Assembly (NCBI GenBank): GCA_032718475.1 | Contig: JAUCBJ010004064.1 | Span: 1-38,809 of the forward strand | Direction of reading: 5' to 3' | Source of the DNA: Nemertoderma westbladi | Taxonomy: Eukaryota; Animalia; Xenacoelomorpha | Length of the DNA: 38,809 bases | Part shown: positions 4,743-36,636 of the stretch, in pieces | Position numbering within the stretch: position 1 is the first letter of the stretch | Layout: every line of letters starts with the position of its first letter | Made by a program: the position numbers and the translations under genes | The notes under the pieces: generated by a model | What the model was told of the DNA's origin: nothing | What the model saw: only the letters and a program-made list of their open reading frames with translations | Database searches by the model: none

Positions 4743-5136
4743 CTGGAAACATACCAAAAAATAATACAAGATATAATAGAGCGGCTTCGCTAAACGCCAA
4801 AAGCTTTTAGTAACTTGGTGGTGATGGATGGATAAATGACACATCCCAATGTTCCTAAAATTGTTTGTAGTGGAACATATATTAATATTTTATATTTATT
4901 GCTGGAAATTCTAAAATAATTGGCGTAATACAGGCCTAACAAAAGGTAGAGTAGGGCATGATTCAATTGGAAAGGAATCAAATTCACACTGACCTGTCGG
5001 ACACATTAATTTATCTAATGATAATTAAAGGTCGTGCGGGACATACTGTCTAACAGGGGCTGTTAAATCTATATAAACAAAATAAACGGGTAAACACGAG
5101 AGTCTTACACTCCAATATGGCGTTGGGTAATCCTTT

Positions 5137-5192
5137 GTCCAGCTGATGAGGTGTCGAGATTACCGCGTACTGGGTCTCAGGCACCGAAACGC
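5137..5192 (+). ncRNA. Hammerhead ribozyme candidate 1 (permuted topology)
   Basis: CUGAUGA 5143-5149; stem II GGUGUC 5150-5155/GGCACC 5180-5185; GAAA 5186-5189; stem III GCGU 5165-5168/ACGC 5189-5192; GUA site, cut after 5169; stem I CUGGGU 5170-5175/GUCCAG 5137-5142. Confidence 0.75.
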
Positions 5193-5197
5193 AACTA

Positions 5198-5376
5198 TAT
5201 TTTTGATAAAATTAATTATTTTTGATAAAATTAATTATTTTTGATAAAATTAATTATTTTTGATAAAATTAATTATTTTTGATAAAATTAATTATTTTTG
5301 ATAAAATTAATTATTTTTGATAAAATTAATTATTTTTGATAAAATTAATTATTTTTGATAAAATTACTTATTTTTG
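5198..5376. repeat. 19-bp AT-rich tandem repeat (TTTTTGATAAAATTAATTA), ~9 copies
   Basis: Seen directly, immediately 3' of the hammerhead core. Confidence 0.95.
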
Positions 5377-6439
5377 CCCTAGTCATATATTTTCTTATAG
5401 AATATAGGCTTAGCTTTTGTGCAGTATATTACCGGTATCAGTTAGTGTATATGGCGGTTAGGCTTAGGGTTAGGGTGCGATACATATCTGTAAGTTAAGC
5501 AGATTTAATATATTTGTGTTTTTTGTTTATGTCGTTTTTGTTTGCATTGTTGGTGGTTTTTGATGGCCCTCGGGCTGAGTACTATTTTGGGTGTAATGTC
5601 CTGACACTACGTGTTTTGTTGGTTTTGTGGGGTGTAAGACTCTAGTGTTTACCTGCTTATTTTTTATATAGATTAATTTTTCTATCGCGGTAACTTGAAA
5701 TAGCATGTAATTTTTAATTATATCAAAAATAGACCCCATATAATATCTGATGTAAAAAAAATTTAAGAATTCCGATGCAAGGAAATTTCATAATTTACAG
5801 TTTTAATGGTAGCGGAGATTTTTCACATTATAATATTAGGTGTAATTGATTTATATTGTTTTACTTTAAAAACCACAATAGTTTTTATTATGTAACGAAT
5901 TCAATTTTTGGTATTTCAGGTAGACAATATCTGATGTTATGTCTGGGTCAATTTCCCTCGTTTAGTTGAGAATTTGTATTAATAAGGTTTCGTTATTGTA
6001 CCACCAGCCAAAAGATAATAAAAGATTAGACAAAGTTGCTCTGGAAATGAAATTTGTAACTATGTAAGCCATCAAATATCAACAAATGTTAGTTACCCTC
6101 ACCCTGTTGAGTAACATTAAATGTTGCTAAGGAGAGAAACATGAAATTAAAAGTATTAATGGTCAGATTTTTTTGGAGCATGTGATTATTGTAATATACA
6201 CAAAATGTACTTACAAATTATTTTTGGCAAATTTGTAACTTTTTATGTCTCTAAGCCATTCTATTATTAATTGTGGTGAATTTAAATTTTGATAGTGAAT
6301 TATAATACAGTCAATGGAAGGAGATAAGGGTGAGTGCTGCAATCATGGAAATATTTTACAATATGATGAGAATGTCGTAATGTAACAACAGCCGGCTATA
6401 TAGTGAGTCGGTTGGAATTGGGTGGAACGTTAATCTCAC

Positions 6440-6984: not shown

Positions 6985-7288
6985 CCTACGTCGGTGAATT
7001 AAACGTAAATCCTAGGTCGGTGAATTAAACGTAAATCCTCAGTCGGTGAATTAAGCGTAAATCCTACGTCGGTGAATTAAACGTAAATCATACGTCGGTG
7101 AATTAAGCGTAAATCCTAGGTCGGTGAATTAAACGTAAATCCTAGGTCGGTGAATTAAACGTAAATCCTAGGTCGGTGAATTAAACGTAAATCCTAGGTC
7201 GGTCAATTAAACGTAAATCCTAGGTCGGTGAATTAAACGTAAATCATACGTCGGTGAATTAAACGTAAATCATACGTCGGTGAATTAA
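6985..7288. repeat. 26-bp minisatellite (CCTAGGTCGGTGAATTAAACGTAAAT), ~12 copies
   Basis: Contiguous units with no unique spacers. Confidence 0.95.
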
Positions 7289-8062
7289 TATCTCGTCTCG
7301 ATGTTCAATTATGAATTTTGCCATATCTGAAGATTAATTTTTTTCGTTTCATTTAAAAATTTTCGAGGGCGTTCATAATTAAATACTATTTAAGTAATAA
7401 TAATTAAGTAGGCCTTAATTCTGCATTGTGTTATCTATCCCATGAAGGAAAATTTAATTTGACGATATATATTTCGTAGTTTCAATAGTTGTAGTGCAAA
7501 CAAGTCAACAATCAACAGCAAGTATTCGCACATTAATTATTGTGTTCTCATTTATGAAGTTAATGTGCTAAAACTCGCTGTTAATACTGAGCAGTTTGTA
7601 CTACATCGTCAAATTAAAATTAGAAAGATGTGTTTCGCCGGAAAAAATCTGAATACGGGGAGGCCAAACTACTGGAAAAGTTGAAAGAGACAGAACCAAC
7701 CCCCATGGTCCCTATTCCAGGAAAGAACACCAATCAGTTCTGCACCCATTGCATCCGAAGTACTAGAACAACATTTCGAGAATCTATTAGGACAGAACTC
7801 AGAAGGAACAGACCAGGTTCGCATCGTTTTAGATGAGGATCGGCTACAAGACCAATGGTATAATCAGCCGATTACAGAGGACGAAATTAAAGAAGCGGTT
7901 CATTCCACGTCAAACAAAAAAGCAAGCGGCCAAGACAGAATCTAAAATGAACACCTAAAACAAATTCTTTCACTGATACTATCCATTCTGGTTTATCTTT
8001 TTAACACTTGCTTCACTATTGCTGTGATAACAACTCTTTGGGCAACTAGCATTATAAAAATA

Positions 8063-8861
8063 TGATTTTTGACAACCACGACTTTAGAGGGATTGTTATA
8101 TTAATATGAAAACAATAAAATAGGACATGGGGTCTTATTCCCTCAGATACTACCTAGCATTTAGGGCCACTTGGGCCACTGTTAGTACTCAGGCACTAAT
8201 AAGGCCCATTAAAAAACAAAATACCAAATCGATTTTAGTGCTACATAGCCCAACCCAACTACCACAAGAAAAATTACACCAAACCATACAGTAACTACAG
8301 GTTCCGGTAAGTATTGCACGAAATAGGCTATCCCATAAATTACGAAAAATATAGGACATTTTGTACGCCAAAAAGGTAAGTCTAAGTAATAAATCTGTTT
8401 GGTTAATCTCTGTTTGGTGGTACGGTAGGATTTCTAATTTATTGGTCATTGTCTTAATTTAGTGGTGCAGTTTTGTTAGGGTAGGGGTGGGGGGGTTCGT
8501 GGCACACTGCTGATGAGGAGAACCCCGAATCCCAGGGTTCAGTGTTTAAATCTCCGAAACCCTTTTATTTTTATAAAATTTATTACTTAGACTTACCTTT
8601 TTGGCGGACAAAATGTCCTATATTTTTCGTAATTTATGGGATAGCCCATTTCGTGCAATACTTACCAGAACCTGTAGTTACTGTATGGTTTGGTGTAATT
8701 TTTCTTGTGGTAGTTGGGTTGAGCTATGTAGCACTAAAATCGATTTGGTATTTTGTTTTTTGATGGGCCTTAGTGCCTATGTACTAACAGTGGGCCAAGT
8801 GGCCCTAAATGCTAGGTAGTATCTGAGGGAATAAGACACCATGTCCTATTTTATTGTTTTT
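8063..8861 (+). mobile_element. 799-bp non-coding insertion with ~285-bp inverted arms, central hammerhead and 12-bp TSD (Penelope-like pLTR derivative)
   Basis: TSD ATTATAAAAATA at 8051-8062 and 8862-8873; arms 8109-8394 and 8578-8860; removing the insert restores the LINE reading 'WATSIIKILYKGKG'. Confidence 0.8.
8504..8563 (+). ncRNA. Hammerhead ribozyme candidate 2 (permuted topology)
   Basis: CUGAUGA 8510-8516; stem II GGAGA 8517-8521/UCUCC 8551-8555; GAAA 8556-8559; stem III AGGGU 8534-8538/ACCCU 8559-8563; GUU site, cut after 8539; stem I CAGUGU 8540-8545/ACACUG 8504-8509. Confidence 0.75.
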
Positions 8862-10500
8862 ATTATAAAAATACTCTATAAAGGGAAAGGTAGCAGGACG
8901 AGTCCCGATAATTATCGCCGTTATTAGCGTGATTGCCAAAATCCTTACAAAAATAATCAACAAAAGGGTACTCCTACACATTTCCCACTTACTTCCACCG
9001 GAACAATATGGTTTCATAGAGGGAAAATCGACCATGCAAGCATTGATAAAACTAATATCAGACATCGCAGAAACACTCAGGAGACCACGTGACTCACCCG
9101 CTAACAAACCCAGGATTATAATTATATGGGCACTCATAGACTTTCACAAAGCGTTTGATTTGGTAGATCGATCTCGACTACTGTATTAAATGTATAATTC
9201 CTTTGGAATAAAGGGAAAACTCTACAATTTAATTGAAGCCCTATTCAACAACCGAGTAAAAATCTTCGATGGAATAAAATTCTCCAAGCTAATTACACAG
9301 CTCCGGGGAATTCTGCAAGGAGATAGTTTCTCACCAACATGTTTCCTTATATTTATAGCGGATCTCGCGTCAGTTCTACGGGGAATTGAGGTTCATATTT
9401 TTTGCAGATGATCTGGTGTTTTATTCGGAAAACAAAGCTGATATTCAAAAAGGCTTTGATGAACTTCAGAAATGACGTATCAAAAACTCAAAGGAAGTGA
9501 ACAAGAAAAACAAAGATAATTAAATTCCGGAATGGTGGACGTTTATCACATTTTGATGTTAATCTATTATGACGGAAAGGAAATAAATATCTACAATAAA
9601 TATGAGTATCTTGGGGTTGTTATGCAACCGTCACTGTCGTTTTCAAAGCACATCGATCAGAAGAAGAGAAGCTTTCTCTGCAATAGGATGTGTAAGACAC
9701 TTGCAACTTATTTCGATCGAAACTGGGATGAAGATATACTCTCTGAAAAAATACCCAATGTTCTGCTACGCTTTTCAAGAAATAGTCCCCCCTTTTTCAC
9801 TCTGACGAACCTCAAAGAACTGGATAAAGTGAAATTTACCTTCCTAAAAGGTCTACTTGGTTTATCAAAATACTCCTCGTCCATCTTAGCTATGAAGATA
9901 GTTGGTTGTAAATCATACGTAGAAGACCTAAAGTTGAAATATCCGGGAATTTTTGATCGAACGGTGTTAGAACAACATAGGTCATATAGACGACAGAGGG
10001 AGGAATCATTTAGCGACAACAACTTCTTAGAAGGACCGGCTTTTACCTCGCAGGGTTGGCGCGCCCCGGGCCAAAGGAACCGGCATCTTATTATGAGGGC
10101 CACCGCCCACGGCTTCCACTGGAAACTATGTAGTGACGTAACGCCATTTCACGAACTGGGTCCAACCTGTTACTGTAAATACTGTGGAGGCAGTGCGAGT
10201 GAGAGATATCACTTATTTAGCCTTAGCTGTGGGTCCCGTCCAGCAGCTGTGGGTCCTTTCCAGTGTCCAGCTCTCTCGGCTCTGGGGAACTCTAAGTGAC
10301 TACAGACCCCTCAGACTACAGACCTCTTTTTAGCAATTTAAATTTAAAATTAATATATATACAAACCTAATATTTTAAATACTCTGATTTTAATTTAAAT
10401 TTAACTGTACTCTGATAAATGTAATTTTAATGTATTAAAGATTCAATTTACCTCGTACGTGCGTCTAGATTTCTCAGAAAAAAAATTAAAATTATATTAC

Positions 10501-11910: not shown

Positions 11911-14900
11911 CAAGTAATAAGTAATATTATCTAATCCTTACCTTAAACTCTAATCATATTCATGTAATCCAAGTAATAAGTAATATTATCTAATCCTTAC
12001 CTTAAACTCTAATCAGATTCCTGTAAACCAAGTAATAAGTAATATTATATAATCCTTACCTTAAACTCTAATCATATTCATGTAATCCAAGTAATAAGTA
12101 ATATTATCTAATCCTTACCTTAAACTCTAATCATATTCATGTAATCCAAGTAATAAGTAATATTATCTAATCCTTACCTTAAACTCTAATCATATTCATG
12201 TAATCCAAGTAATAAGTAATATTATCTAATCCTTACCTTAAACTCTAATCATATTCCTGTAATCCAAGTAATAAGTAATATTATCTAATCCTTACCTTAA
12301 ACTCTAATCAGATTCCTGTAAACCAAGTAATAAGTAATATTATCTAATCCTTACCTTAAACTCTAATCATATTCATGTAATCCAAGTAATAAGTAATATT
12401 ATCTAATCCTTACCTTAAACTCTAATCAGATTCATGTAATCCAAGTAATAAGTTATATTATATAATCCTTACCTTAAACTCTAATCATATTCATGTAATC
12501 CAAGTAATAAGTAATATTATCTAATCCTTACCTTAAACTCTAATCATATTCATGTAATCCAAGTAATAAGTAATATTATCTAATCCTTACCTTAAACTCT
12601 AATCATATTCCTGTAATCCAAGTAATAAGTAATATTATCTAATCCTTACCTTAAACTCTAATCAGATTCCTGTAATCCAAGTAATAAGTAATATTATCTA
12701 ATCCTTACCTTAAACTCTAATCAGATTCCTGTAAACCAAGTAATAAGTAATATTATCTAATCCTTACCTTAAACTCTAATCAGATTCCTGTAATCCAAGT
12801 AATAAGTAATATTATCTAATCCTTACCTTAAACTCTAATCATATTCATGTAATCCAAGTAATAAGTAATATTATCTAATCCTTACCTTAAACTCTAATCA
12901 GATTCCTGTAAACCAAGTAATAAGTAATATTATCTAATCCTTACCTTAAACTCTAATCAGATTCCTGTAATCCAAGTAATAAGTAATATTATCTAATCCT
13001 TACCTTAAACTCTAATCAGATTCCTGTAAACCAAGTAATAAGTAATATTATCTAATCCTTACCTTAAACTCTAATCAGATTCCTGTAAACCAAGTAATAA
13101 GTAATATTATCTAATCCTTACCTTAAACTCTAATCAGATTCCTGTAAACCAAGTAATAAGTAATATTATCTAATCCTTACCTTAAACTCTAATCAGATTC
13201 CTGTAAACCAAGTAATAAGTAATATTATCTAATCCTTACCTTAAACTCTAATCAGATTCCTGTAATCCAAGTAATAAGTAATATTATCTAATCCTTACCT
13301 TAAACTCTAATCAGATTCCTGTAATCCAAGTAATAAGTAATATTATCTAATCCTTACCTTAAACTCTAATCAGATTCCTGTAATCCAAGTAATAAGTAAT
13401 ATTATCTAATCCTTACCTTAAACTCTAATCATATTCATGTAATCCAAGTAATAAGTAATATTATCTAATCCTTACCTTAAACTCTATAATCAAATTCCTG
13501 TAATCCAAGTAATAAGTAATATTATCTAATCCTTACCTTAAACTCTAATCATATTCATGTAATCCAAGTAATAAGTAATATTATCTAATCCTTACCTTAA
13601 ACTCTAATCATATTCATGTAATCCAAGTAATAAGTAATATTATCTAATCCTTACCTTAAACTCTAATCATATTCATGTAATCCAAGTAATAAGTAATATT
13701 ATCTAATCCTTACCTTAAACTCTAATCATATTCATGTAATCCAAGTAATAAGTAATATTATCTAATCCTTACCTTAAACTCTAATCATATTCATGTAATC
13801 CAAGTAATAAGTAATATTATCTAATCCTTACCTTAAACTCTAATCAGATTCCTGTAATCCAAGTAATAAGTAATATTATCTAATCCTTACCTTAAACTCT
13901 AATCAGATTCCTGTAATCCAAGTAATAAGTAATATTATCTAATCCTTACCTTAAACTCTAATCATATTCATGTAATCCAAGTAATAAGTAATATTATCTA
14001 ATCCTTACCTTAAACTCTATAATCAGATTCCTGTAATCCAAGTAATAAGTAATATTATCTAATCCTTACCTTAAACTCTAATCAGATTCCTGTAATCCAA
14101 GTAATAAGTAATATTATCTAATCCTTACCTTAAACTCTAATCATATTCATGTAATCCAAGTAATAAGTAATATTATCTAATCCTTACCTTAAACTCTAAT
14201 CAGATTCCTGTAAACCAAGTAATAAGTAATATTATCTAATCCTTACCTTAAACTCTAATCAGATTCCTGTAAACCAAGTAATAAGTAATATTATCTAATC
14301 CTTACCTTAAACTCTAATCAGATTCCTGTAATCCAAGTAATAAGTAATATTATCTAATCCTTACCTTAAACTCTAATCAGATTCCTGTAATCCAAGTAAT
14401 AAGTAATATTATCTAATCCTTACCTTAAACTCTAATCATATTCATGTAATCCAAGTAATAAGTAATATTATCTAATCCTTACCTTAAACTCTATAATCAG
14501 ATTCCTGTAATCCAAGTAATAAGTAATATTATCTAATCCTTACCTTAAACTCTAATCAGATTCCTGTAATCCAAGTAATAAGTAATATTATCTAATCCTT
14601 ACCTTAAACTCTAATCATATTCATGTAATCCAAGTAATAAGTAATATTATCTAATCCTTACCTTAAACTCTAATCAGATTCCTGTAATCCAAGTAATAAG
14701 TAATATTATCTAATCCTTACCTTAAACTCTAATCAGATTCCTGTAATCCAAGTAATAAGTAATATTATCTAATCCTTACCTTAAACTCTAATCATATTCA
14801 TGTAATCCAAGTAATAAGTAATATTATCTAATCCTTACCTTAAACTCTAATCAGATTCCTGTAATCCAAGTAATAAGTAATATTATCTAATCCTTACCTT

Positions 14901-17900
14901 AAACTCTAATCAGATTCCTGTAATCCAAGTAATAAGTAATATTATCTAATCCTTACCTTAAACTCTAATCAGATTCCTGTAATCCAAGTAATAAGTAATA
15001 TTATCTAATCCTTACCTTAAACTCTAATCAGATTCCTGTAATCCAAGTAATAAGTAATATTATCTAATCCTTACCTTAAACTCTAATCATATTCATGTAA
15101 TCCAAGTAATAAGTAATATTATCTAATCCTTACCTTAAACTCTATAATCAGATTCCTGTAATCCAAGTAATAAGTAATATTATCTAATCCTTACCTTAAA
15201 CTCTAATCAGATTCCTGTAAACCAAGTAATAAGTAATATTATCTAATCCTTACCTTAAACTCTAATCAGATTCCTGTAATCCAAGTAATAAGTAATATTA
15301 TCTAATCCTTACCTTAAACTCTAATCAGATTCCTGTAATCCAAGTAATAAGTAATATTATCTAATCCTTACCTTAAACTCTAATCATATTCATGTAATCC
15401 AAGTAATAAGTAATATTATCTAATCCTTACCTTAAACTCTATAATCAGATTCCTGTAATCCAAGTAATAAGTAATATTATCTAATCCTTACCTTAAACTC
15501 TAATCAGATTCCTGTAATCCAAGTAATAAGTAATATTATCTAATCCTTACCTTAAACTCTAATCATATTCATGTAATCCAAGTAATAAGTAATATTATCT
15601 AATCCTTACCTTAAACTCTATAATCAGATTCCTGTAATCCAAGTAATAAGTAATATTATCTAATCCTTACCTTAAACTCTAATCAGATTCCTGTAAACCA
15701 AGTAATAAGTAATATTATCTAATCCTTACCTTAAACTCTAATCAGATTCCTGTAATCCAAGTAATAAGTAATATTATCTAATCCTTACCTTAAACTCTAA
15801 TCAGATTCCTGTAATCCAAGTAATAAGTAATATTATCTAATCCTTACCTTAAACTCTAATCATATTCATGTAATCCAAGTAATAAGTAATATTATCTAAT
15901 CCTTACCTTAAACTCTATAATCAGATTCCTGTAATCCAAGTAATAAGTAATATTATCTAATCCTTACCTTAAACTCTAATCAGATTCCTGTAATCCAAGT
16001 AATAAGTAATATTATCTAATCCTTACCTTAAACTCTAATCAGATTCCTGTAATCCAAGTAATAAGTAATATTATCTAATCCTTACCTTAAACTCTAATCA
16101 TATTCATGTAATCCAAGTAATAAGTAATATTATCTAATCCTTACCTTAAACTCTAATCATATTCCTGTAAACCAAGTAATAAGTAATATTATCTAATCCT
16201 TACCTTAAACTCTAATCATATTCATGTAATCCAAGTAATAAGTAATATTATCTAATCCTTACCTTAAACTCTAATCATATTCATGTAATCCAAGTAATAA
16301 GTAATATTATATAATCCTTACCTTAAACTCTAATCATATTCATGTAATCCAAGTAATAAGTAATATTATCTAATCCTTACCTTAAACTCTAATCATATTC
16401 ATGTAATCCAAGTAATAAGTAATATTATCTAATCCTTACCTTAAACTCTAATCATATTCATGTAATCCAAGTAATAAGTAATATTATCTAATCCTTACCT
16501 TAAACTCTAATCATATTCATGTAATCCAAGTAATAAGTAATATTATCTAATCCTTACCTTAAACTCTAATCATATTCATGTAAACCAAGTAATAAGTAAT
16601 ATTATCTAATCCTTACCTTAAACTCTAATCATATTCATGTAATCCAAGTAATAAGTAATATTATCTAATCCTTACCTTAAACTCTAATCATATTCATGTA
16701 ATCCAAGTAATAAGTAATATTATCTAATCCTTACCTTAAACTCTATAATCATATTCCTGTAATCCAAGTAATAAGTAATATTATCTAATCCTTACCTTAA
16801 ACTCTAATCATATTCATGTAATCCAAGTAATAAGTAATATTATCTAATCCTTACCTTAAACTCTAATCATATTCATGTAATCCAAGTAATAAGTAATATT
16901 ATCTAATCCTTACCTTAAACTCTAATCATATTCCTGTAATCCAAGTAATAAGTAATATTATCTAATCCTTACCTTAAACTCTAATCATATTCCTGTAATC
17001 CAAGTAATAAGTAATATTATCTAATCCTTACCTTAAACTCTAATCATATTCATGTAATCCAAGTAATAAGTAATATTATCTAATCCTTACCTTAAACTCT
17101 AATCATATTCATGTAATCCAAGTAATAAGTAATATTATCTAATCCTTACCTTAAACTCTAATCATATTCCTGTAATCCAAGTAATAAGTAATATTATCTA
17201 ATCCTTACCTTAAACTCTAATCATATTCATGTAATCCAAGTAATAAGTAATATTATCTAATCCTTACCTTAAACTCTAATCATATTCATGTAAACCAAGT
17301 AATAAGTAATATTATCTAATCCTTACCTTAAACTCTATAATCATATTCCTGTAATCCAAGTAATAAGTAATATTATCTAATCCTTACCTTAAACTCTAAT
17401 CATATTCATGTAAACCAAGTAATAAGTAATATTATCTAATCCTTACCTTAAACTCTAATCATATTCCTGTAATCCAAGTAATAAGTAATATTATCTAATC
17501 CTTACCTTAAACTCTAATCATATTCATGTAAACCAAGTAATAAGTAATATTATCTAATCCTTACCTTAAACTCTAATCATATTCCTGTAATCCAAGTAAT
17601 AAGTAATATTATCTAATCCTTACCTTAAACTCTAATCATATTCCTGTAATCCAAGTAATAAGTAATATTATCTAATCCTTACCTTAAACTCTAATCATAT
17701 TCCTGTAATCCAAGTAATAAGTAATATTATCTAATCCTTACCTTAAACTCTAATCATATTCATGTAAACCAAGTAATAAGTAATATTATCTAATCCTTAC
17801 CTTAAACTCTAATCATATTCCTGTAATCCAAGTAATAAGTAATATTATCTAATCCTTACCTTAAACTCTATAATCATATTCCTGTAATCCAAGTAATAAG

Positions 17901-18363
17901 TAATATTATCTAATCCTTACCTTAAACTCTAATCATATTCATGTAATCCAAGTAATAAGTAATATTATCTAATCCTTACCTTAAACTCTAATCATATTCA
18001 TGTAAACCAAGTAATAAGTAATATTATATAATCCTTACCTTAAACTCTAATCATATTCATGTAATCCAAGTAATAAGTAATATTATCTAATCCTTACCTT
18101 AAACTCTAATCAGATTCATGTAATCCAAGTAATAAGTAATATTATATAATCCTTACCTTAAACTCTAATCAGATTCATGTAATCCAAGTAATAAGTAATA
18201 TTATCTAATCCTTACCTTAAACTCTAATCATATTCATGTAATCCAAGTAATAAGTAATATTATCTAATCCTTACCTTAAACTCTAATCATATTCATGTAA
18301 TCCAAGTAATAAGTAATATTATCTAATCCTTACCTTAAACTCTAATCATATTCCTGTAAACCA
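11911..18363. repeat. 59-bp intronic satellite array, ~109 copies
   Basis: Unit CAAGTAATAAGTAATATTATCTAATCCTTACCTTAAACTCTAATCA(T/G)ATTC(A/C)TGTAA(T/A)C, with occasional +2-bp variants. Confidence 0.98.
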
Positions 18364-18508
18364 AATTTACAGGAATCCGGATAAAACTAACAGGTTAAAA
18401 ATTCAAACATAAATTAGCTCTTCATCACCAGAAACATTTTTCAAGAAGGACTAACATTCAACGTCAATAATACCTCATCATACATTTTGGTTTACTCATA
18501 AATCTTAC

Positions 18509-21365: not shown

Positions 21366-21588
21366 TGATCTACAGTAGTACCGGTTCCGGTACTAACAAT
21401 TTTTTGCTATTTGTATGAATTATACTATTGTTTGTTTTTTTTGCAATGTCTAAAGTGATTGACATTTACCTTATTTTCTCTCTATTTATTTATCAAAGAT
21501 ATCGGTAATTAAATAAGTGTCCTGGTAGGCCTAATGTGGTTGGTACGTGTATTTAACTCTGACTGATATAATATAATAATTGACAAAA

Positions 21589-22191
21589 ATGGATAATCTC
21601 AACATAATAATAGCGTTATTTCTATGTGTGAACTTCATTCACGCAGTTTATGGAGCCGTAACTTGTGAAGAAGGTTTCACGATTGTAGTTAAATCGGACA
21701 ATTCCAAAATACAGGAAGTTACGCAACAGATGTTTGATAATTTATCAACTCAATTGCCGAAGACAACTAATGATAATTGTGGGAAGTGTATGGCAATGTC
21801 TATCCTATTCGGTGGAAAGATGAAGGATGCTGATGTCAACGTCGCTATGTCAACGTCATTTGTTATGTGTTTGCCAGAAGAGGTTGTGGATATGTGCAAA
21901 CCTCTTACTGAGGACCAATGTCCTGGAAAAGGTGTTGACGAAATTCCTCTCGCAAAAGCCATACAGGGTATGGTAGAGGATTTGAAGCCCCAGTATGAGG
22001 ACCCTCAGGTAGCATGCCAGTGGGAATGTTGTGATGGAGCGTGCGATACCAAATGGAATAATAATCCTTTCGGAGCTGATGGGGAAGTTAATTGGAGTAG
22101 CTCTTTCTTAACCGGTGGGGCCCCTGGCAACGCAATATATATTTGTCTGGTGGTTGCCATGGTTGCACTCGGAGTACTGTTCCAGAACTAG
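21589..22191 (+). CDS. Secreted, probably GPI-anchored Cys-rich protein, Ly6/uPAR (three-finger)-like, 200 aa; nested antisense in an FN3 intron
   Basis: AAAATGG start context; N-terminal signal peptide (NIIIALFLCVNFIHAVYG); ~10 Cys in the mature part ending in ECCDGACD; small-residue region then a hydrophobic C-terminus with no cytoplasmic tail. Confidence 0.8.
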   Translation: MDNLNIIIALFLCVNFIHAVYGAVTCEEGFTIVVKSDNSKIQEVTQQMFDNLSTQLPKTTNDNCGKCMAMSILFGGKMKDADVNVAMSTSFVMCLPEEVVDMCKPLTEDQCPGKGVDEIPLAKAIQGMVEDLKPQYEDPQVACQWECCDGACDTKWNNNPFGADGEVNWSSSFLTGGAPGNAIYICLVVAMVALGVLFQN

Positions 22192-22626: not shown

Positions 22627-23188
22627 CATGGGCAGCCTTGAATAGGCTTTCCAGGATTTGGAAGTCACAGAGAATTAATCGGAAACTTAAGGTCCGATTA
22701 TTTGGAGCAGCAGTAGTTCCAGTACTCCTCTATGGGAGTCCATGCTGGGCTCTCCATACTGGGCTCTAACTGCTGAGGACACCAAATCTCTGGATGGCAC
22801 ATTCACAATAATGCTACGCCGGGTTCATTATGTCAAGTACAATGCACACATCTCCAACCAGACACTATATAACATTGGAGGTGTCTCATTGGTTCCCCCA
22901 AGCTTGACACTAGAACAAAGTCGCCTCCGCTTTGCAGGACATTGCTTTCGCCTAGAGGACCAGCCAGTGCATAATCTTGTACTTTGGCAGCCACATGGAG
23001 TGAATAAGCATGGTGGACAGCCCATGACATTCTTGAGACGCATCTTAAAGGACACTGGCCTTAAAAATGCGGATGATCTAGCAAATGTCATGGGTGATAG
23101 TTAGTTGTGGCGGCGCAATTTTGTCGACAAGCCGGTACAGCATTCTTAAAAATGCAGCTGCAATGCAGCATGCCGATCCTAGTAGTAG
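22627..23188 (+). mobile_element. 5'-truncated RTE-clade LINE, copy 4
   Basis: Near-identical to copies 1 and 2; (TAG) tail; small internal duplication near 22740-22765. Confidence 0.9.
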
Positions 23189-27704: not shown

Positions 27705-28637
27705 TCAGTAAAGTAGAATCCGCTTCTCTACGGCTTTGCGGCATATCGGACACTCGTTCATTCGGTCGCCACACAGCTGACAGGCCCCGTGGCCGCACAG
27801 AAAGATCATGTTCTTTATCCGGTCGAGACAGACGGGACACATTGTCTGCTCCTTAATGTCCTGGAGCTGCTGCTCGAGCTTCCGTACGTCCGACGAGTTC
27901 TCCACGAGCAGGGCCCCGGGGGCCAACTGGTCGCCGGCGTCGGACCGCAGCTGGGCCGAGTTGTTGAGAGGCGCCACGTTGGATGGCGGCACAGCGGCGG
28001 CGTTTTGGGCGGCGCCGCAGCACACGGACAACGGGACCATGGCCTCGATCTCGGTGCGGCACTGGACGCACTTCTTCATGAGCACGGCGCAACCGTCGCA
28101 CGCGCACATGTGGCCGCAGGGCCGGAACAGGACGCAGGCCTTCCTGTCCGAACAGACGACACACTCCTCGATGGGCGTCCGACTGCGCACCGCCTCCTTA
28201 CAAATCAAACATTTCTTTACGCGCGAGGCACACAGCGAACACGTAGCAACGTGTCCGCACGGACCAATCAGAGTGTCCCGTTTCAGGTCGGAGCAGACCA
28301 TGCACTCATCCAGCCCTGCAGCAGCCTTCTCATTGCTATTCTTCTCCGGAGGCCCGTTGTAACTGTCGCTGTTCCGATCCTTGTGACACTTGACGAGCGC
28401 CTTGCACAGGTTAGGATCCGGACACAAGTCCAACGGGGTCTGGTTCTTTTTGTTCTTTATGTTGAGGTCGGCGCCGTTGGCCGCTAGGAAACACGCGATG
28501 GACGCGCTGGACTTTTTGTCCGCGCCCTGGGAACCCAGACCCATGAGCAGTTTACCCACGTCCTGCATATCCTGCAGCTGCCGCAGTTGGCTCAGGGTGT
28601 GGTGTCTGAGGGCCTCGTGTAGGGGGGTATCCCCGTC
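27705..28637 (-). CDS. mib1: mind bomb 1 exon 3 (last ankyrin repeats and three RING fingers)
   Basis: TTCTCCTAG acceptor; [26 protein letters not shown]...[44 protein letters not shown]. Confidence 0.96.
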
Positions 28638-28755
28638 CTAGGAGAACAAATCGTTAATATAATTAGCATTTTAACATACGGCTTACCTCCCGGCGGGGAC
28701 TTCTCTTATTGGTAAAATTTAATTAGCAACGCGGTATATTAATATAGCAGCTTAC

Positions 28756-29703
28756 CTTATCCTGTATATCCAACCGACAGCCCTGTCTCACTAACAACCT
28801 CACTATCTGCGTATGTTGTCTCTCCACCGAGAGATGCAACGCCGACTGTAGGTTCCCATTCTGTATGTTCACGTCGGCCCTCCCCAGATGGACCAACAAC
28901 TCCGCGACCTCGCAATGATTATTCAACGAGGCCAGATGCAACGCGGTGTAGCCGTCGTCTTTAGGCTCGTCCACCACCCAGGCTCGCGGCAACTTAGCCA
29001 ATAGTATCCGAACAGCCGAGGGGTTGCCGCGCAACGCGGCGTGATGCAACGCGCAGAAGCCGTTGTTATTGGTGAGTCGCATATCGGCGTTGTAATCCAG
29101 GAGTAGTTGAATCATATCCTCTCGTTTCTTGCTGATGGCGTCGTGTAACGGAGTGTCGCCCTCGTTGTCCTGGAGACTGGGCAGCGCGCCCAGCACTAAC
29201 AGCTGCTTGACGACGCCCACGTGGCCCTTATTGACCCCGATATGGAGCGCGGTCTGTCTGCGTTTGTTCCGGGCGTTGAGGTCGGCCCCGGTGCGACTGA
29301 GCAGCTCGATGACTGCGGGCTCGTCCCCGAAGGCCGAGTGGTGCACGGCTCGGTCCCCGTCCCGATCCTCGATCTCCAACTCGACCCCGTGACGGATGAG
29401 TCCCCGCACGACCTCGATGTGGCCGTTCTGGGAGGCGGCTTGCAGCGCCGTGTGGCCCGCGAACACCCCGTTGGGGTCCGCGTCGCTCCGGCCCAACAAC
29501 TCCTCGACCCTCCCGCCGTCCCCGTTCGCCGCCGCTTTCACTAAATCCTCGTTAACGTCGCCCGTCACGTGCGTCTCGAATAGTTTCTTTAGCAGCGCCG
29601 AGAGTCTCTCGCTGCTGTTCGATGCGCTGGTAGCGCCCGCCTCTGAGTCCACACGACTAACGGCTCCCGGGTTGTAAGTCCAAGACGTTCCGCAAACTTC
29701 CAC
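28756..29703 (-). CDS. mib1: mind bomb 1 exon 2 (end of second Mib repeat and ankyrin repeats)
   Basis: [12 protein letters not shown]...[13 protein letters not shown]...; AG acceptor, GTAAGC donor; 948 nt, phase 0/0. Confidence 0.96.
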
Positions 29704-31524
29704 CTTTATAAGGGAAATAATAAAATAATTAACTAAGTCGTATAATTCACTCTTAATGCGAAATAATATCAAACTGAGAGGCAATTTAAACAGAAAACTA
29801 TCCTGGATGTCGGAAGAGCCGATGAACGGATGAACCTGTTACAAATACAGCGATGGAGCGGCATATTGATTATATCCATGTTTGGTCATTATTAAAAAAT
29901 CTAACAATAATTTTAGGCTGCAAGTTGTTCGATGTGAGGTTGGAATTGTTCACGTTGAATATTGCATTGATGTAACACTGACTGTATATATATATATTAT
30001 AAAAAGTTGTTTTACAGACTGGTATTACTTTACGGCATTACAGTGGTAGACGACCTACGAATAATATATACGACATTAAGGGGAGGGACATACAAGGGGG
30101 ACTTAACTTAACACCTATATATATAGAGGTAGTGAAGAAAAATTTAATAGCTGTTCATTGTGCTTATCAAATTCCCCTTAAAAAGAGCTTTCGAATGATA
30201 TATGTTTGTTTATAGATTTTGAAACAAAAATTGTTTTGACGAAAATCCCATCTTAAGTTTGGCCACTTTTAGTGATTGTTACCGGCTATAGGGGGAATAT
30301 AATATAATACTTCTAGATAGATACCAATTTAGTTTCCAGAGCAACGGAAATTTGTCTAATAATTGAACCATTTTTAATACCAATGTTGCTGTTACAATAT
30401 AAGGACCTTATTTACACAACTTCTCTACTAAACGGGTGGATGTAACCTCGCCAATCGGATTTATCGACCTCAAAAACCCTTATCCCCAAAAAATGTATTT
30501 GTTATATGATAAACTATTGTGCTTTTCAAACGAAAACAAATAAATAAATTACACCTAAAATCAATAGAGCAATCACATTTTAATTATGTGAAAAATCTTC
30601 ACTAACATTAATGGAAATTATGAAATTTCCCTGCAGTGGAAAATTGTATAATTATTTTACAACGGTTTCCTTAATATAACGTGAAGTTTTTGATATATTT
30701 AAAAATTTTATGCGACTTCTAGTTACCGAGATATAGCAATTAATGTGTAACACGCCAGTTTAAATATTACTAATTTCCCATTGAATCACAGCTTATTGTG
30801 AAATTAATTAAATTATTCTGGAACGTCACCAATTTGCCACTTACTTTTCCCTACTGTTCCTTTTGTTTGGCTTGTGTTAAGCAAATTTACGCAGAATTTC
30901 CATGAATAAACATATGATCCGCAAAATAAAATTATATAGACTTTTTTTGGTCATTTATAAGGTAATATAGAATCCAAAATATGTGGTTCGGATTAATTGC
31001 GAAATACTTATGGGTTTTTTGCTAGATTGACTTGACTATAAGTCATCTGATGATGTGGCAGATCTAAATAAGGAATACGATCAGAATCGACAGCATGGAG
31101 AATAACAAAGTATCAGGATTTATAGCTATAAAATAAATGTATAGTAAAAACAATTTTAATGAATGACAAAGTATCAGGATTGATAGCTATAAATGTATAG
31201 TAAAAAACAATAATGATGTTGATAATTAATGTTGAAATGGTGAAAATGTTGATAATTTGGAAATTTGTTTTTGAATTCTCCATTGTATTATACTGTATAT
31301 TGACTACTTTTTCTGTATCTGTTTTTGTGCTTTTATCCATTAAGTCTCATTTCAAACGTCATACTTATCTACTTTTACAGCTAATCTGCTAAAGAAATAT
31401 TTCGTTTTGAGGTTAACAATTGAGTGAAAGAATATGTAATATAATGTTGGATGATATTATCTTTCTGTTGTACAGTAAAATTTATTTTTGCAATTGATAA
31501 CAACCTTGTTGGTCCGACCGAGGT

Positions 31525-32955
31525 TGCATCATGTACCGAAGGGAAAACAACACCTTGTGGGGGTGCATCATGTACCGAAGGGAAAACAACACGTTGTGGG
31601 CGTGCATCATGTACCGAAGGGAAAACAACACCTTGTGGGGGGTGCATCATGTACCGAAGGGAAAACAACACCTTGTGGGGGTACATCATGTACCGAAGGG
31701 AAAACAACACCTTGTGGGGACACGTGCATCATTTACCGAAGGGAAAACAACACCTTGTGGGCGTGAATCATGTACCGAAGGGAAAACAACACCTTGTGGG
31801 CGTGCATCATGTACCGAAGGGAAAACAACACCTTGTGGGGACACGTGCATCATTTACCGAAGGGAAAACAACACCTTGTGGGCGTGAATCATGTACCGAA
31901 GGGAAAACAACACCTTGCGGGCGTGCATCATGTACCGAAGGGAAAACAACACCTTGCGGGCGTGCATCATGTACCGAAGGGAAAACAACACCTTGTGGGG
32001 GTGCATCATTTACCGAAGGGAAAACCACACCTTGCGGGCGTACATCATGTACCGAAGGGAAAACAACACCTTGTGGGCGTGAATCATGTACCGAAGGGAA
32101 AACAACACCTTGCGGGCGTGCATCATGTACCGAAGGGAAAACAACACCTTGCGGGCGTGCATCATGTACCGAAGGGAAAACAACACCTTGTGGGCGTGAA
32201 TCTTGTACCGAAGGGAAAACAACACCTTGCGGGCGTGCATCATGTACCGAAGGGAAAACAACACCTTGCGGGCGTGCATCATGTAACGAAGGAAAAACAA
32301 CACCTTGTGGGGGTGCATCATGTACCGAAGGGAAACAACACCTTGTGGGGGTGCATCGTGTACCAAAGGGAAAACAACACCTTGTGGGCGTGCATCATGT
32401 ACCGAAGGGAAAACAACACCTTGTGGGCGTGCATCATGTACCGAAGGGAAAACAACACCTTGTGGGCGTGCATCATGTACCGAAGGGAAAACAACACCTT
32501 GTGGGCGTGCATCATGTACCGAAGGGAAAACAACACCTTGTGGGGGTGCATCATGTACCGAAGGGAAAACAACACCTTGTGGGCGTGCATCATGTACCGA
32601 AGGGAAAACAACACCTTGTGGGCATGCATCATGTACCGAAGGGAAAACAACACCTTGTGGGCGTGCATCATGTACCGAAGGGAAAACAACACCTTGCGGG
32701 CGTGCATCATGTACCGAAGGGAAAACAACACCTTGTGAGCGTAGGTGTACGGACATTTCCGACCCGGACAATTCCGACCCATGAAAATTTAATTAGACCC
32801 TTGGCTTTGAATGGGTCGGAATTGTCCGGGTCGGAATTGTCCGGATCGCAATTGACCGGGTCGGAATTGTCCTAACTTCGTGGGCATGCATCATGTACCG
32901 TACAACACCTTGTGGGGGTGCATCATGTACCGCAGGGAAAACAACAGCTTGCATG
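31525..32955. repeat. 39-bp minisatellite (TGCATCATGTACCGAAGGGAAAACAACACCTTGTGGGCG), ~31 copies plus 2 degenerate units, in mib1 intron 1
   Basis: Seen directly; interrupted at ~32744-32878; generates the long spurious repetitive ORFs. Confidence 0.97.
32744..32878. mobile_element. Small MITE-like element built from inverted 15-bp subrepeats
   Basis: Two GGACAATTCCGACCC-like units face four GGGTCGGAATTGTCC-like units; the 39-bp array resumes after it. Confidence 0.65.
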
Positions 32956-33853
32956 GATGAACAATGTCTTAAAAAGGATTCGATAATAATAATTGGTAAT
33001 AAAAGACTTAAATTAATTGAAACAAAGGTTTGCCAAAAAGCTTTTGGAGAAGTTTTTTGGACTTTTTGGAGATACTGGGTTTTGGCATAAATCCAAATCC
33101 CAATATCTCCAAAAAGTTTCATACCAAAACCCAGTATCAACGACTATGCCTCATTTCATGAGTAATAATTAAATTCTTGGAAATAGATTCCTGTTTTTTA
33201 TTGGTTGGCTAAATTAACCAATGGCTTCCCTTGGTTCTGACAAATTTTGGGTTCATTTCATAGCTTTGATCATCAATCGCAGAAGGTCCAAAGTCTTTTG
33301 CGTTTTTCTCAAAATGAAAAATTTGGGGATACTGTGTTTTCGAATGAAAGGGCCGTGCAAGTGCGGAGCTATTTTGGATCGGCTAGCCTTTAGTGCGGAG
33401 GCTATAAGTTGAGCACCGGTGCTGAAATACATAAGCCGTTGTCATATGACCTCTATATGACACATATATATTTTTTGGGTTTGAGCACCAGTGCACAATC
33501 CGCACTGCACTAGTACCAGTGCGGATTGAGCGCCGGTGCTCAATATTTCCACTTATATATATGGCGGGATTTTTAAAATTCCCAAAGATTACCTATTATT
33601 TGATTTAGTTCATTAATTAATTAATTAATCGATAGTTAAGCAATAACTGTCTAATGTTTACTTTTTATATGTTAATGTATATTGCATGAGCAAATGTGCT
33701 GTTGTAACAATAACAATGTTATTTCATATTGTTTTACTTTCTGAATGTTTTTAAATTTTAAAACCCAAATGAATGATGGGGGGGGGGGGGGGGGTTGGGG
33801 TGGGGGTCGTTAAACTCTAGATTATCTACTACGCCCAGCCCATACACAAGCAT

Positions 33854-34160
33854 GGACCCAAGGGAGGGGAGGCTATGGGGCTACCCCCGGACCCAAGGGA
33901 GGGGAGGCTATGGGGCTACCCCCGGACCCAAGGGAGGGGAGGCTATGGGGCTACCCCCGGACCCAAGGGAGGGGAGGCTATGGGGCTACCCCCGGACCCA
34001 AGGGAGGGGAGGCTATGGGGCTACCCCCGGACCCAAGGGAGGGGAGGCTATGGGGCTACCCCCGGACCCAAGGGAGGGGAGACTATGGGGCTACCCCCGG
34101 ACCCAAGGGAGGGGAGGCTATGGGGCTACCCCCGGAACCAAGGGAGGGGAGGCTATGGGC
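33854..34160. repeat. 35-bp G-rich minisatellite (GGACCCAAGGGAGGGGAGGCTATGGGGCTACCCCC), ~9 copies
   Basis: Seen directly. Confidence 0.97.
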
Positions 34161-35020
34161 AGATGGGGCTAGTAAAATAATAAAAAAATTTGAAAATTTT
34201 TGATGAAATTCAAACCACTAACCCAGGACGGGAAGGAGCTAATGAGATGCGGTTTTTTCCAAGGTGGCTCTCCATTGTTTTATGATATTGAATTTGAGCA
34301 CCGGTGCCCAAAGACATTCCCACAAAATGTAATTAGCAAAAAGTAAATTGTTGAGCACCGGTGCACAATCCGCATTTGAGGAACTACACAGGAATGTTCA
34401 CCGGTGCAAAATCCGCACTAACTAAACGCCAATCCTCAAATACTGCCGCAGTCATGGAACAGCACGTGGTTGTTCACTGGTGCAAAATTCACAGTAACAA
34501 AGAACCAGTGGTTTCGGAGCCGCAGCTAACGTGTTAACAGTCTATACAAAAACCAATTCTTCTTTCCGATCTTGATAAATGCCTTCCCCACGCCCACACC
34601 ACCCCAATTCAATACAGTTTTTAACTTTAATACTTTTTCTTTACTTTTACTACTTTTACTTTAATATTTAGTTTATATAGATTTTATATACCAGGCAATA
34701 CAGACCCAAAACTAAACAAAAGATTAACCAATTTGCGTAATTTGCGTTACGTAATTTAAGGACCTTTTAAAATCACGTAACGCTTTTTTGTATGGACTAA
34801 TTTTGGACAGGCTATATAGTTTATTCCCATTGGCAGCTCAAATATGATGCTATGATAATGACTGAGATTGCCACTGAATGCCATTCCATCTCCACCAGAT
34901 GAACTTAAAGTTTTTAGATTGGGCATTGTAGGGTTTCAACCACGATCGATTTTCAACTGATGTTGATTTCAACTGATTGAAGAAGAAACTTTAAGTAAAT
35001 TAGAAAGGTTAGCGACTCAC

Positions 35021-36154
35021 CTTTAGGTCCCCGTCGTGGTATATCTGCTGGATCCTTCCGATCTTCCCCAAAGTTGGCGCCATCGCCTCAGCCCACTCGC
35101 CATGCCCTCGTTGGAGGGATTTAATGCGATCGAGGTCCCCGCAGACCAAGACGAGGTCCCCCACCGAGTAGACGGCCCCCTGCTGGCCGACAGGGGGAGC
35201 CGAGGGGGGCTCCTCGGTGGAGGGCGCCGACGCCTTGGTCAGCACGGCCGGGTTGAACGTCCAGCGGTTGCCGCTGGGGTAGGAGACCACCACGTCGGAG
35301 TCCTCATCCACTCCGACTACCACTCCGGTCGTCGCCAACGTCTCGTACATCCCGTCCGTCCAGCCCCCGTGCCCGTGCTGCAGACTCTGCACGACCTCCA
35401 GCTCCAGGTCTATGTGCACCGGGTCGCCCACCTGGTAGACCGAGGCGACGCCAGCCGAAGATACGCCCCCCGGTTCCCCTAACGACGGGAGGTGATCCCG
35501 GTAGAAACATCCGCCCTTCCCGTCGCTAACCGCCTTTAGGTCCGACATTCCTTCAAATCCAACCCGGTAAAGATTCTTGGAGCCGTTGTCCCAGACGACG
35601 TAGGCCGCAGACCGGGGGTTCCCCCCACTCCAGTCCTGCAACTCGGTGACCTTCCCCCGCCTTCCGTTCCCCCCGTCCTGGTCCTCCCATTGCCAGTCTA
35701 CCCCCCGCACAACCCGAGCCCCGGGGAAGATACCTCTTCCAACGATCTTCTTGGACTTCCGACGCTGTTCCATCAGCTGCTTATCGTCCGACGTTGGATT
35801 CGTTAACCGGAAGAAGCGGTGACGTAGACTGTGCTTGTCGCTATGGTAACATGCACTGCACAGGTCGTAGTTGGAGCACTCGGCGCATTTCCAGCGGATC
35901 CCGTATATCGGTTGCATCCGACACGTGTCGCACATAGTGGATTCATGTTTAATCCCGGTGGGGGCGCTGTCGTACTGGCGCAGATCGAAGGCCCCCGCGC
36001 ACCGGTAGTTGGCGGCAGTACCGTTGTCCCAGACAACCACAACTTCCTCTGGGGACTCGAAACTTCTCACTGTTCCCAGATGGCCCTCCCCTCCATCTTG
36101 TTTGCACCACTTCCAATCGACTCCACGAACAACCCGACACCCCACTCCCTCCAT
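35021..36154 (-). CDS. mib1: mind bomb 1 exon 1 (Mib/HERC2, ZZ zinc finger, Mib/HERC2, Mib repeats)
   Basis: [16 protein letters not shown]...[11 protein letters not shown]; ZZ finger CDTC...CAEC...CSAC; GTGAGT donor; in-frame stop shortly upstream of the ATG; joined CDS 378+316+310 = 1004 aa. Confidence 0.96.
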
Positions 36155-36636
36155 TACATAGCACGTTTTGCTTTATAATTTAGGAACAGTCAGACAGTGA
36201 CATAGTAGGCCCCCTACAGTAGTCAGGTAGTACCGGTAGCGGTAAGTACCGTACGATGTGCCCCCTACCGGTCAGCCGGTAATAAAATCCAGAAATCACT
36301 CAATTTTAACCAAGCAGCCAAGCCCAAAAGAACCCAACTGACACCCAAGTTATAGTTCATATGCGTACCTCTGGTATTTTCGTATTGCAAAAATAAGACT
36401 ATAAGTATGAAATACCCTATGTTGTTGAGATATTGTTTATTGTTTTGGTTAGAAAAGCCCACCACTGTTGACTCGTAACCTGCTCCTTTCCGTTAATTAA
36501 GTAGGGCCTAATGGAGATTAGTTTATTTATTGTTTTGGTTACTGGGTTAGAAAACACCACCACTGTAACCTGCTTCTTTTGCCAGAGGTACGCATATGAA
36601 CGATAACCGACACCCACTTTCACCCAACTGCCCAAC

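Follow-up and report, generated by a model that had tools for sequence, protein, structure and literature searches.

A candidate Penelope-like insertion carrying a predicted type-CSG hammerhead ribozyme in Nemertoderma westbladi

The window, the whole 38,809-nt stretch of Nemertoderma westbladi DNA that was analysed, contains a mind bomb-type E3 ligase gene on the minus strand (27708–36172) that has a few large exons and MIB_HERC2, ZZ, SH3_15 and ankyrin domains, and 39-bp and 35-bp tandem arrays lie between the parts of this gene. The mind bomb cluster nearest to it consists mostly of Arthropoda. A satellite with a 59-bp unit (109 copies, 97% matches) occupies 11911–18364, and an intronless 203-codon frame on the plus strand (21580–22188), with a weak, sub-threshold Pfam match, resembles a secreted, cysteine-rich, membrane-anchored protein. 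LINE-type RT genes occur as well. One is present as three related fragments at 578–1429 (with a weak RVT_1 match), 2310–2918 and 22691–23101. The other hosts the insertion described in this report; closely upstream of it are a 26-bp minisatellite of 11.7 copies (6985–7288) and short nested inverted repeats (7435–7621). The host gene and the parts of the insertion are as follows.

7685–10296 (limits approximate), plus strand: decayed LINE-type RT gene hosting the insertion, with stops and frameshifts
8051–8062, unstranded: left copy of the target-site duplication (TSD), 12 bp, begins ATT, within the LINE RT frame, empty site seen
8063–8098, minus strand: extension of the family 3′ end by a tail of about 36 nt, in the inverted copy only
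8099–8394, minus strand: inverted 5′-truncated copy of the element 3′ end; 8109–8394 mirrors 8578–8861
8395–8407, unstranded: junction filler of 13 nt, the first 9 nt of which repeat 8410–8418; family contigs diverge before 8408
8408–8861, plus strand: forward, tail-less, 5′-truncated copy of the element 3′ end (pLTR/3′ UTR), as seen in family contigs
8862–8873, unstranded: right TSD copy, an exact repeat of the left copy

We found that 8051–8873 is a real mobile-element insertion. The 12-bp direct repeat at its borders is exact and occurs no third time in the window, and the probability that a 12-mer recurs by chance without mismatch at a given offset is about 1e-6. When 8063–8873 (one TSD copy plus the 799 bp between the copies) was deleted in silico, the RT-type frame became continuous over the site, and the LINE piece downstream of the insertion matches Pfam RVT_1 with an E value of 5.8e-7. 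Data on the family and on the empty site came from public sequencing contigs of one organism, in four runs (X1–X4) from at most three samples, with 680, 287, 389 and 31 contigs compared. One X2 contig (record 10) has 7894–8050 fused to 8862–8965 across a single TSD copy, with 1 and 0 other letters in the two parts, and an X3 contig (record 16) passes uninterrupted through the site in a related LINE copy; in such contigs an allele and another LINE copy look alike. The preliminary description had placed an exact 12-bp TSD inside a LINE RT gene, and the exact repeat, the frame restored by removal and the empty site all bear this out.

The description had also given the unit as an ORF-less structure with an inverted arm of about 285 bp, a spacer of about 183 bp and a forward arm. 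This anatomy holds. The two arms of about 285 bp are identical at 283 of 295 aligned positions, with 4 gap positions, they are separated by 183 nt, and the longest stop-free frame within 8063–8861 has 92 codons (86 for the longest Met-started frame). The 46 bp next to the left TSD had been taken for unique sequence, which was mistaken: 8063–8108 has the same high contig depth as the rest of the element and is family sequence, most of it a PLE-type tail of 30–40 bp. Its last part, 8099–8108, is the short family end; the forward copy is without such a stretch, or the stretch overlaps the TSD. Each arm also carries a 15-nt motif twice, 231 bp apart (8114–8128 and 8345–8359, plus the mirror sites), which may reflect a duplication within the 3′ UTR.

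The contigs contain many further copies of the family. In X1–X3 the summed contig depth, a measure that gives no copy number and is low in some bins within the element, is mostly 1e4–1e5 in the bins covering 8082–8645 and 35–265 on the flanks. Among the loose ends listed, those with mixed flanks form two groups, at about 8053–8069 and at 8096–8107. Family copies terminate either with or without the stretch of about 36 nt, and there are thus two outer-end classes. Joints between strands vary as well: in 9 of the 15 joints listed, out of 23 in total, an inverted arm ending within 8086–8331 is fused to a forward copy starting within 8471–8755, a further 3 of these 15 connect opposite strands, and none of the 15 is a head-to-tail joint. 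Arm length, inner junction and 5′ end therefore differ between copies. Conserved family sequence is present upstream of about 8408 in all four runs, extending at least 246 nt in X4, and the forward copy in the window is therefore 5′-truncated. The preliminary description had named a single-copy unit, or fixed TIR ends, as grounds against its Penelope-like reading; in the contigs the unit is multi-copy and its copies lack fixed TIR ends.

Long near-perfect inverted arms, a 12-bp TSD and a 15-nt motif at both ends of each arm could also belong to a foldback or MITE-type DNA transposon, with Mutator-like long TIRs and a TSD of 9–12 bp, whose spacer resembles a hammerhead by chance. We regard this as very improbable, given the asymmetrical ends, the copy-to-copy variation of arm length and inner junction, the two outer-end classes, and a second element in the window in which the arm is 49 nt and the TSD is 13 bp. 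A DNA transposon or MITE with fixed TIRs is excluded by the variable arm lengths and 5′ ends and by the lack of a constant interior.

The second element (5005–5684) is diverged from the first and has the same plan of TSD, tail, inverted arm and forward copy, with a hammerhead of its own (HHR2).

5005–5017, unstranded: left TSD, 13 bp, begins ATT; 12 of 13 positions match 5672–5684, and 1 of 500 shuffles was as good
5018–5114, minus strand: inferred tail of about 48 nt (5018–5065) and short inverted arm of 49 nt (5066–5114)
5115–5671, plus strand: forward 5′-truncated copy with HHR2 and a 19-bp tandem expansion
5672–5684, unstranded: right TSD, pairs with 5005–5017

The 19-bp unit lies directly after HHR2 and is expanded to 9.4 copies (5198–5376). 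The 3′ part of this element is related to the first element, with a score of 106 against 56.5 ± 7.6 for shuffled sequences, none of 500 shuffles reaching it. A profile built from the two sequences matched no further element in the window.

The shared plan has close parallels among Penelope-like elements (PLEs). In the part of PMC8557442 available to us, Naiads and other PLEs are described as having 5′ truncation, an adjoining inverted truncated copy and a one-sided tail of 30–40 bp. According to the accessible text of Frangione et al. 2024 (PMC11167929), both strands are nicked and then extended by a purified PLE, which has 5′-ATT-3′ as its predominant cutting site and two RT start sites, the interval between them being the tail. 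Variable 5′ truncation together with an inverted truncated copy on the 5′ side is seen here in the contig joints and in both window elements, and the outer-end classes about 36 nt apart match a tail of 30–40 bp at one end only. Both TSDs begin with ATT, in agreement with the PLE cutting preference, and two further PLE traits are present, an AT-rich target and a hammerhead near the 3′ end, the latter in a non-canonical permutation. By these sequence features the unit is very probably a PLE-type insertion.

A plausible route to this structure can be outlined from the purified enzyme. In an AT-rich target, a PLE ribonucleoprotein would use its GIY-YIG endonuclease to nick the two strands at positions 12 nt apart, and the 3′ end of each nick would prime reverse transcription near the element 3′ end. 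The outer start would yield the inverted copy with its tail, and the inner start, which lies about 36 nt deeper in the element, the tail-less forward copy. Both cDNAs would stop early and be joined tip to tip with the 13 nt of filler, and gap filling would produce the TSD. We infer that the TSD, the arms, the one-sided tail and the filler are present because priming occurred from both nicks, one for each start site. Taken as a whole, the unit is probably one 5′-truncated, doubly primed copy of a high-copy PLE, itself probably Naiad-related, that carries a predicted type-CSG ribozyme.

A less likely account, though one with some weight, is a non-autonomous, ORF-less master, a retrozyme- or SINE-like PLE derivative that borrows the PLE enzyme, of which the window copy would be a truncated piece with the same CSG ribozyme. 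Neither window element has an ORF, the contig depth is very high, and non-autonomous PLE derivatives are described in the accessible parts of PMC8557442 (Chlamys) and of bioRxiv 10.64898/2026.07.22.740005. Against it, the family sequence extends upstream of 8408, head-to-tail joints are absent among the 15 listed of 23, and an autonomous PLE is itself expected to yield mostly short 3′-end copies. The preliminary description had favoured a pLTR-only or retrozyme-like non-autonomous element. Its Penelope-like part is supported by the multi-copy state, the absence of fixed TIR ends and the PLE-type tail and arms; the pLTR-only or retrozyme-like part fits less well with the upstream family sequence. 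Non-LTR retrozymes are marked by head-to-tail tandem units, a type I hammerhead and circular or unit-length RNA; the window has no tandem of the unit, and the hammerhead is not of type I.

We return to the preferred reading, an insertion by a high-copy PLE, and to its ribozyme. A hammerhead had been noted in the spacer from the outset. Its core is indeed present (8504–8563), but it is not a canonical hammerhead: Rfam at gathering score gave no match across the window, and a descriptor covering all six block orders matched at two places in the window (8510 and 5143), both of type CSG, on which grounds the canonical types I and III were rejected. The same six-order descriptor found no locus in 300 dinucleotide-shuffled windows. 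The predicted parts, all on the plus strand, are listed below.

8492–8563: predicted type-CSG hammerhead HHR1, from the all-order descriptor, helices and core intact
8492–8502/8523–8533: HHR1 extra helix, 11 bp with one mismatch (8525)
8504–8509/8540–8545: HHR1 stem I, 6 bp
8510–8516: HHR1 core, CUGAUGA
8517–8521/8551–8555: HHR1 stem II, 5 bp
8534–8538/8559–8563: HHR1 stem III, 5 bp
8556–8559: HHR1 GAAA, the G block
After U8539 (GUU): HHR1 predicted cut, NUH site
5126–5192: predicted type-CSG hammerhead HHR2, in the second element
5126–5132/5158–5164: HHR2 extra helix, 7 bp
5137–5142/5170–5175: HHR2 stem I, 6 bp
5143–5149: HHR2 core, conserved core bases intact
5150–5155/5180–5185: HHR2 stem II, 6 bp
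5165–5168/5189–5192: HHR2 stem III, 4 bp
After A5169 (GUA): HHR2 predicted cut, NUH site

In the motif, stem I leads into CUGAUGA and the first strand of stem II; the cleavage strand comes next, within loop II, and is followed by the second strand of stem II, GAAA and stem III. HHR1 and HHR2 both have the block order C (CUGAnGA), S (cleavage site), G (GAAA), with all conserved core bases, an A-U pair in stem III and an NUH site, and the distance from core to GAAA is 39 nt in HHR1 and 36 nt in HHR2. Both also have a fourth helix, formed by the 5′ extension of stem I with loop II and abutting stem III. Cleavage sites of the GUU type are generally slower than GUC.

With the two window sequences registered by hand from the core, 12 of 22 pairs in register are the same in HHR1 and HHR2, 3 are changed on one side, 7 are changed on both sides and none is broken; this comparison has two sequences only. 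An automatic alignment placed the two cores out of register and gave 77% paired, which 111 of 500 shuffles equalled. Core variants at 1% or more were absent from 220 and 57 family contigs, although the family is young and their absence therefore says little on selection. The sole substitution listed within 8492–8563 is at position 8525; it occurs in all covering contigs and closes the mismatch of the extra helix, and the mismatch is thus private to the window copy. On the strength of this modelling we are confident that the window motifs would adopt the predicted type-CSG fold.

The minimum-energy nested fold of 8470–8580 is not the predicted hammerhead (z −0.75): the stem II region pairs in it, together with competing helices, and the folding program draws nested structures only, so that pseudoknots lie outside its reach. 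Tandem repeats of animals are known to include minimal hammerheads that act as dimers. Both points would suit a motif that acts in trans, in which a double hammerhead arises from two RNA copies that swap strands, with no pseudoknot in a single molecule. This is improbable in our judgement, since the extra helix has the role of a clamp in cis and is kept despite changes on both sides, and since CSG-1 and CSG-2, two RNAs of the same layout, cut themselves at the predicted site as they are transcribed, according to the accessible text of PMC10085705. Action in cis is the reading we retain. By analogy with the type-CSG RNAs that have been tested, loop II would contain the cleavage strand and would be held against the 5′ extension of stem I by the 11-bp helix, which takes over from the usual loop-loop contact, and self-cutting after U8539 would trim tandem or read-through transcripts to unit length.

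The 5′ starts of other family copies bear on this cut. Among the 13 starts listed, 6 lie between −7 and +27 nt relative to the predicted cut (8533–8567), 2 of them upstream of it, and the clustering has a scan-statistic p of 0.012 in a set that includes one start from a stretch chosen around the site. This is a weak hint in favour of a template end defined by the cut.

Pattern searches were extended to viral and metagenome contigs. A loose CSG pattern gave 61 loci in viral contigs, and none of the 61 passed the descriptor. A tighter CSG pattern gave at least 120 loci in metagenome contigs; among the 120 matches listed, one passed a relaxed CSG descriptor, and none was an ORF-linked copy. The passing locus (L089) was set aside as a chance match, being wobble-rich, in a GC-rich context and with no clear extra helix, and two loose metagenome matches (L113 and L137) have block orders other than CSG.

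The core-to-GAAA distances point to the Naiads. EN+ PLEs have an ORF with a telomerase-like RT and a GIY-YIG endonuclease, and the Naiad clade is distinguished by an N-terminal position of the GIY-YIG domain, a CxC linker and a DKA motif. In the available part of PMC8557442, Craig 2021 lists 54 Naiad families and reports no canonical hammerhead in Naiads, finding instead cores and eight ‘half cores’, with the second half 35–50 nt away. The window elements match this hallmark: no canonical hammerhead is present, and the core halves are 39 and 36 nt apart. In the accessible parts of the Naiad consensus file (PMC8557442 supplement), eight motifs fold by eye as full CSG hammerheads with the extra helix; the search was by core words, unscored, and incomplete where line ends split motifs. 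Four are named by their headers (Naiad_Parc, Naiad-1_Nbra, Naiad-2_Nbra and Naiad-3_Nbra). Of the other four, one stands in the entry that precedes Parc, a pair is in part 15 of the file and another is in part 16; by file order these are probably the remaining four nematode families. The CSG-bearing Naiads that can be named are nematode. Naiad_Parc, as given in that file, has the spacings of HHR1 (helix of 11, 1 nt, stem I of 6, core, stem II of 5, 1 nt, helix, 5-nt linker), and one of the part-15 motifs, again by eye, shares the GUU site with HHR1. By analogy, the window ribozyme is built like a nematode Naiad ribozyme and would work like one. Ribozyme architecture is the basis on which we place the window family, somewhat tentatively but as the likelier assignment, in the Naiad clade.

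Several non-nematode Naiads in the same file (consensus parts 10–12, 19 and 24) appear by eye to share these helices in a chain that is opened directly behind CUGAnGA. The stem II strand then comes first, followed by a helix, the cleavage block, the GAAA block, a further helix and stem I, with CUGAnGA last. By the same inspection, this order separates the core from stem II, and it lies outside the six permutations of Eckert 2023. We lean slightly towards a wider proposal: the ‘missing’ ribozyme of Naiads would be a non-circular type-CSG hammerhead, standard and at high copy in animals across phyla, whose cut marks the 5′ end of the template, and a second Naiad class would open after CUGAnGA.

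Should this be true, a type-CSG ribozyme would explain why Naiads were reported without a hammerhead. The published view that Naiads spread hammerhead-free would be overturned, as far as it is set out in the accessible text of PMC8557442, in which the lack of hammerheads in Naiads serves to suggest that hammerheads are mere parasites of PLEs. The type-CSG permutation, weakly supported so far, would be provided with a host, a biological context and ample covariation, and non-circularly permuted ribozymes would be placed at high copy in animal genomes. Animal ribozyme counts are probably too low, because standard searches (Rfam here) are blind to the CSG order. In the open literature covered, the term ‘type-CSG’ was found only in Eckert 2023, and no Naiad or other PLE with a permuted hammerhead was found; subscription papers were outside this scope.

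Four known systems invite comparison, each in the part of its source available to us. Type CSG is described in Eckert 2023 (PMC10085705) as one of three non-circular permutations among six orders, and is represented there by CSG-1 and CSG-2, two distinct soil-metagenome sequences that show modest covariation and cleave slowly when tested as RNA (0.004 and 0.026 per min). The window motifs resemble them in the C-S-G order, the intact core, stems I–III of 5–6 bp, the helix from the stem I extension to loop II, and the short linker between the strands of stem I and stem II. No host or element is named for CSG-1 and CSG-2 in that text, whereas here diverged motifs lie in animal mobile elements, one of them at high copy. 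The CSG descriptor given there would miss both window motifs, its loop limit being 10 nt against 12 in HHR1 and its stem III minimum 4 against 3 in HHR2. With the Naiads (PMC8557442) the window elements share the inverted 5′-truncated copy, the one-sided tail of 30–40 bp, the AT-rich target and the lack of a canonical hammerhead; the differences are that Craig 2021 reads the motifs as isolated ‘cores’ or ‘half cores’, and that TSDs are often not discernible there whereas a clean 12-bp TSD is present here. Canonical EN+ PLEs (PAc/Poseidon, PMC11167929) likewise have a tail between RT starts, both strands nicked and extended, an ATT target and a pLTR hammerhead, but theirs is of type I and the one predicted here is a pseudoknotted CSG; in vitro, insertion by a canonical PLE did not require hammerhead cleavage. 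Animal non-LTR retrozymes (bioRxiv 10.64898/2026.07.22.740005) are also ORF-less, hammerhead-bearing, PLE-related repeats, but they form tandem repeats with type I hammerheads, whereas the window copy is an inverted pair with a single CSG motif.
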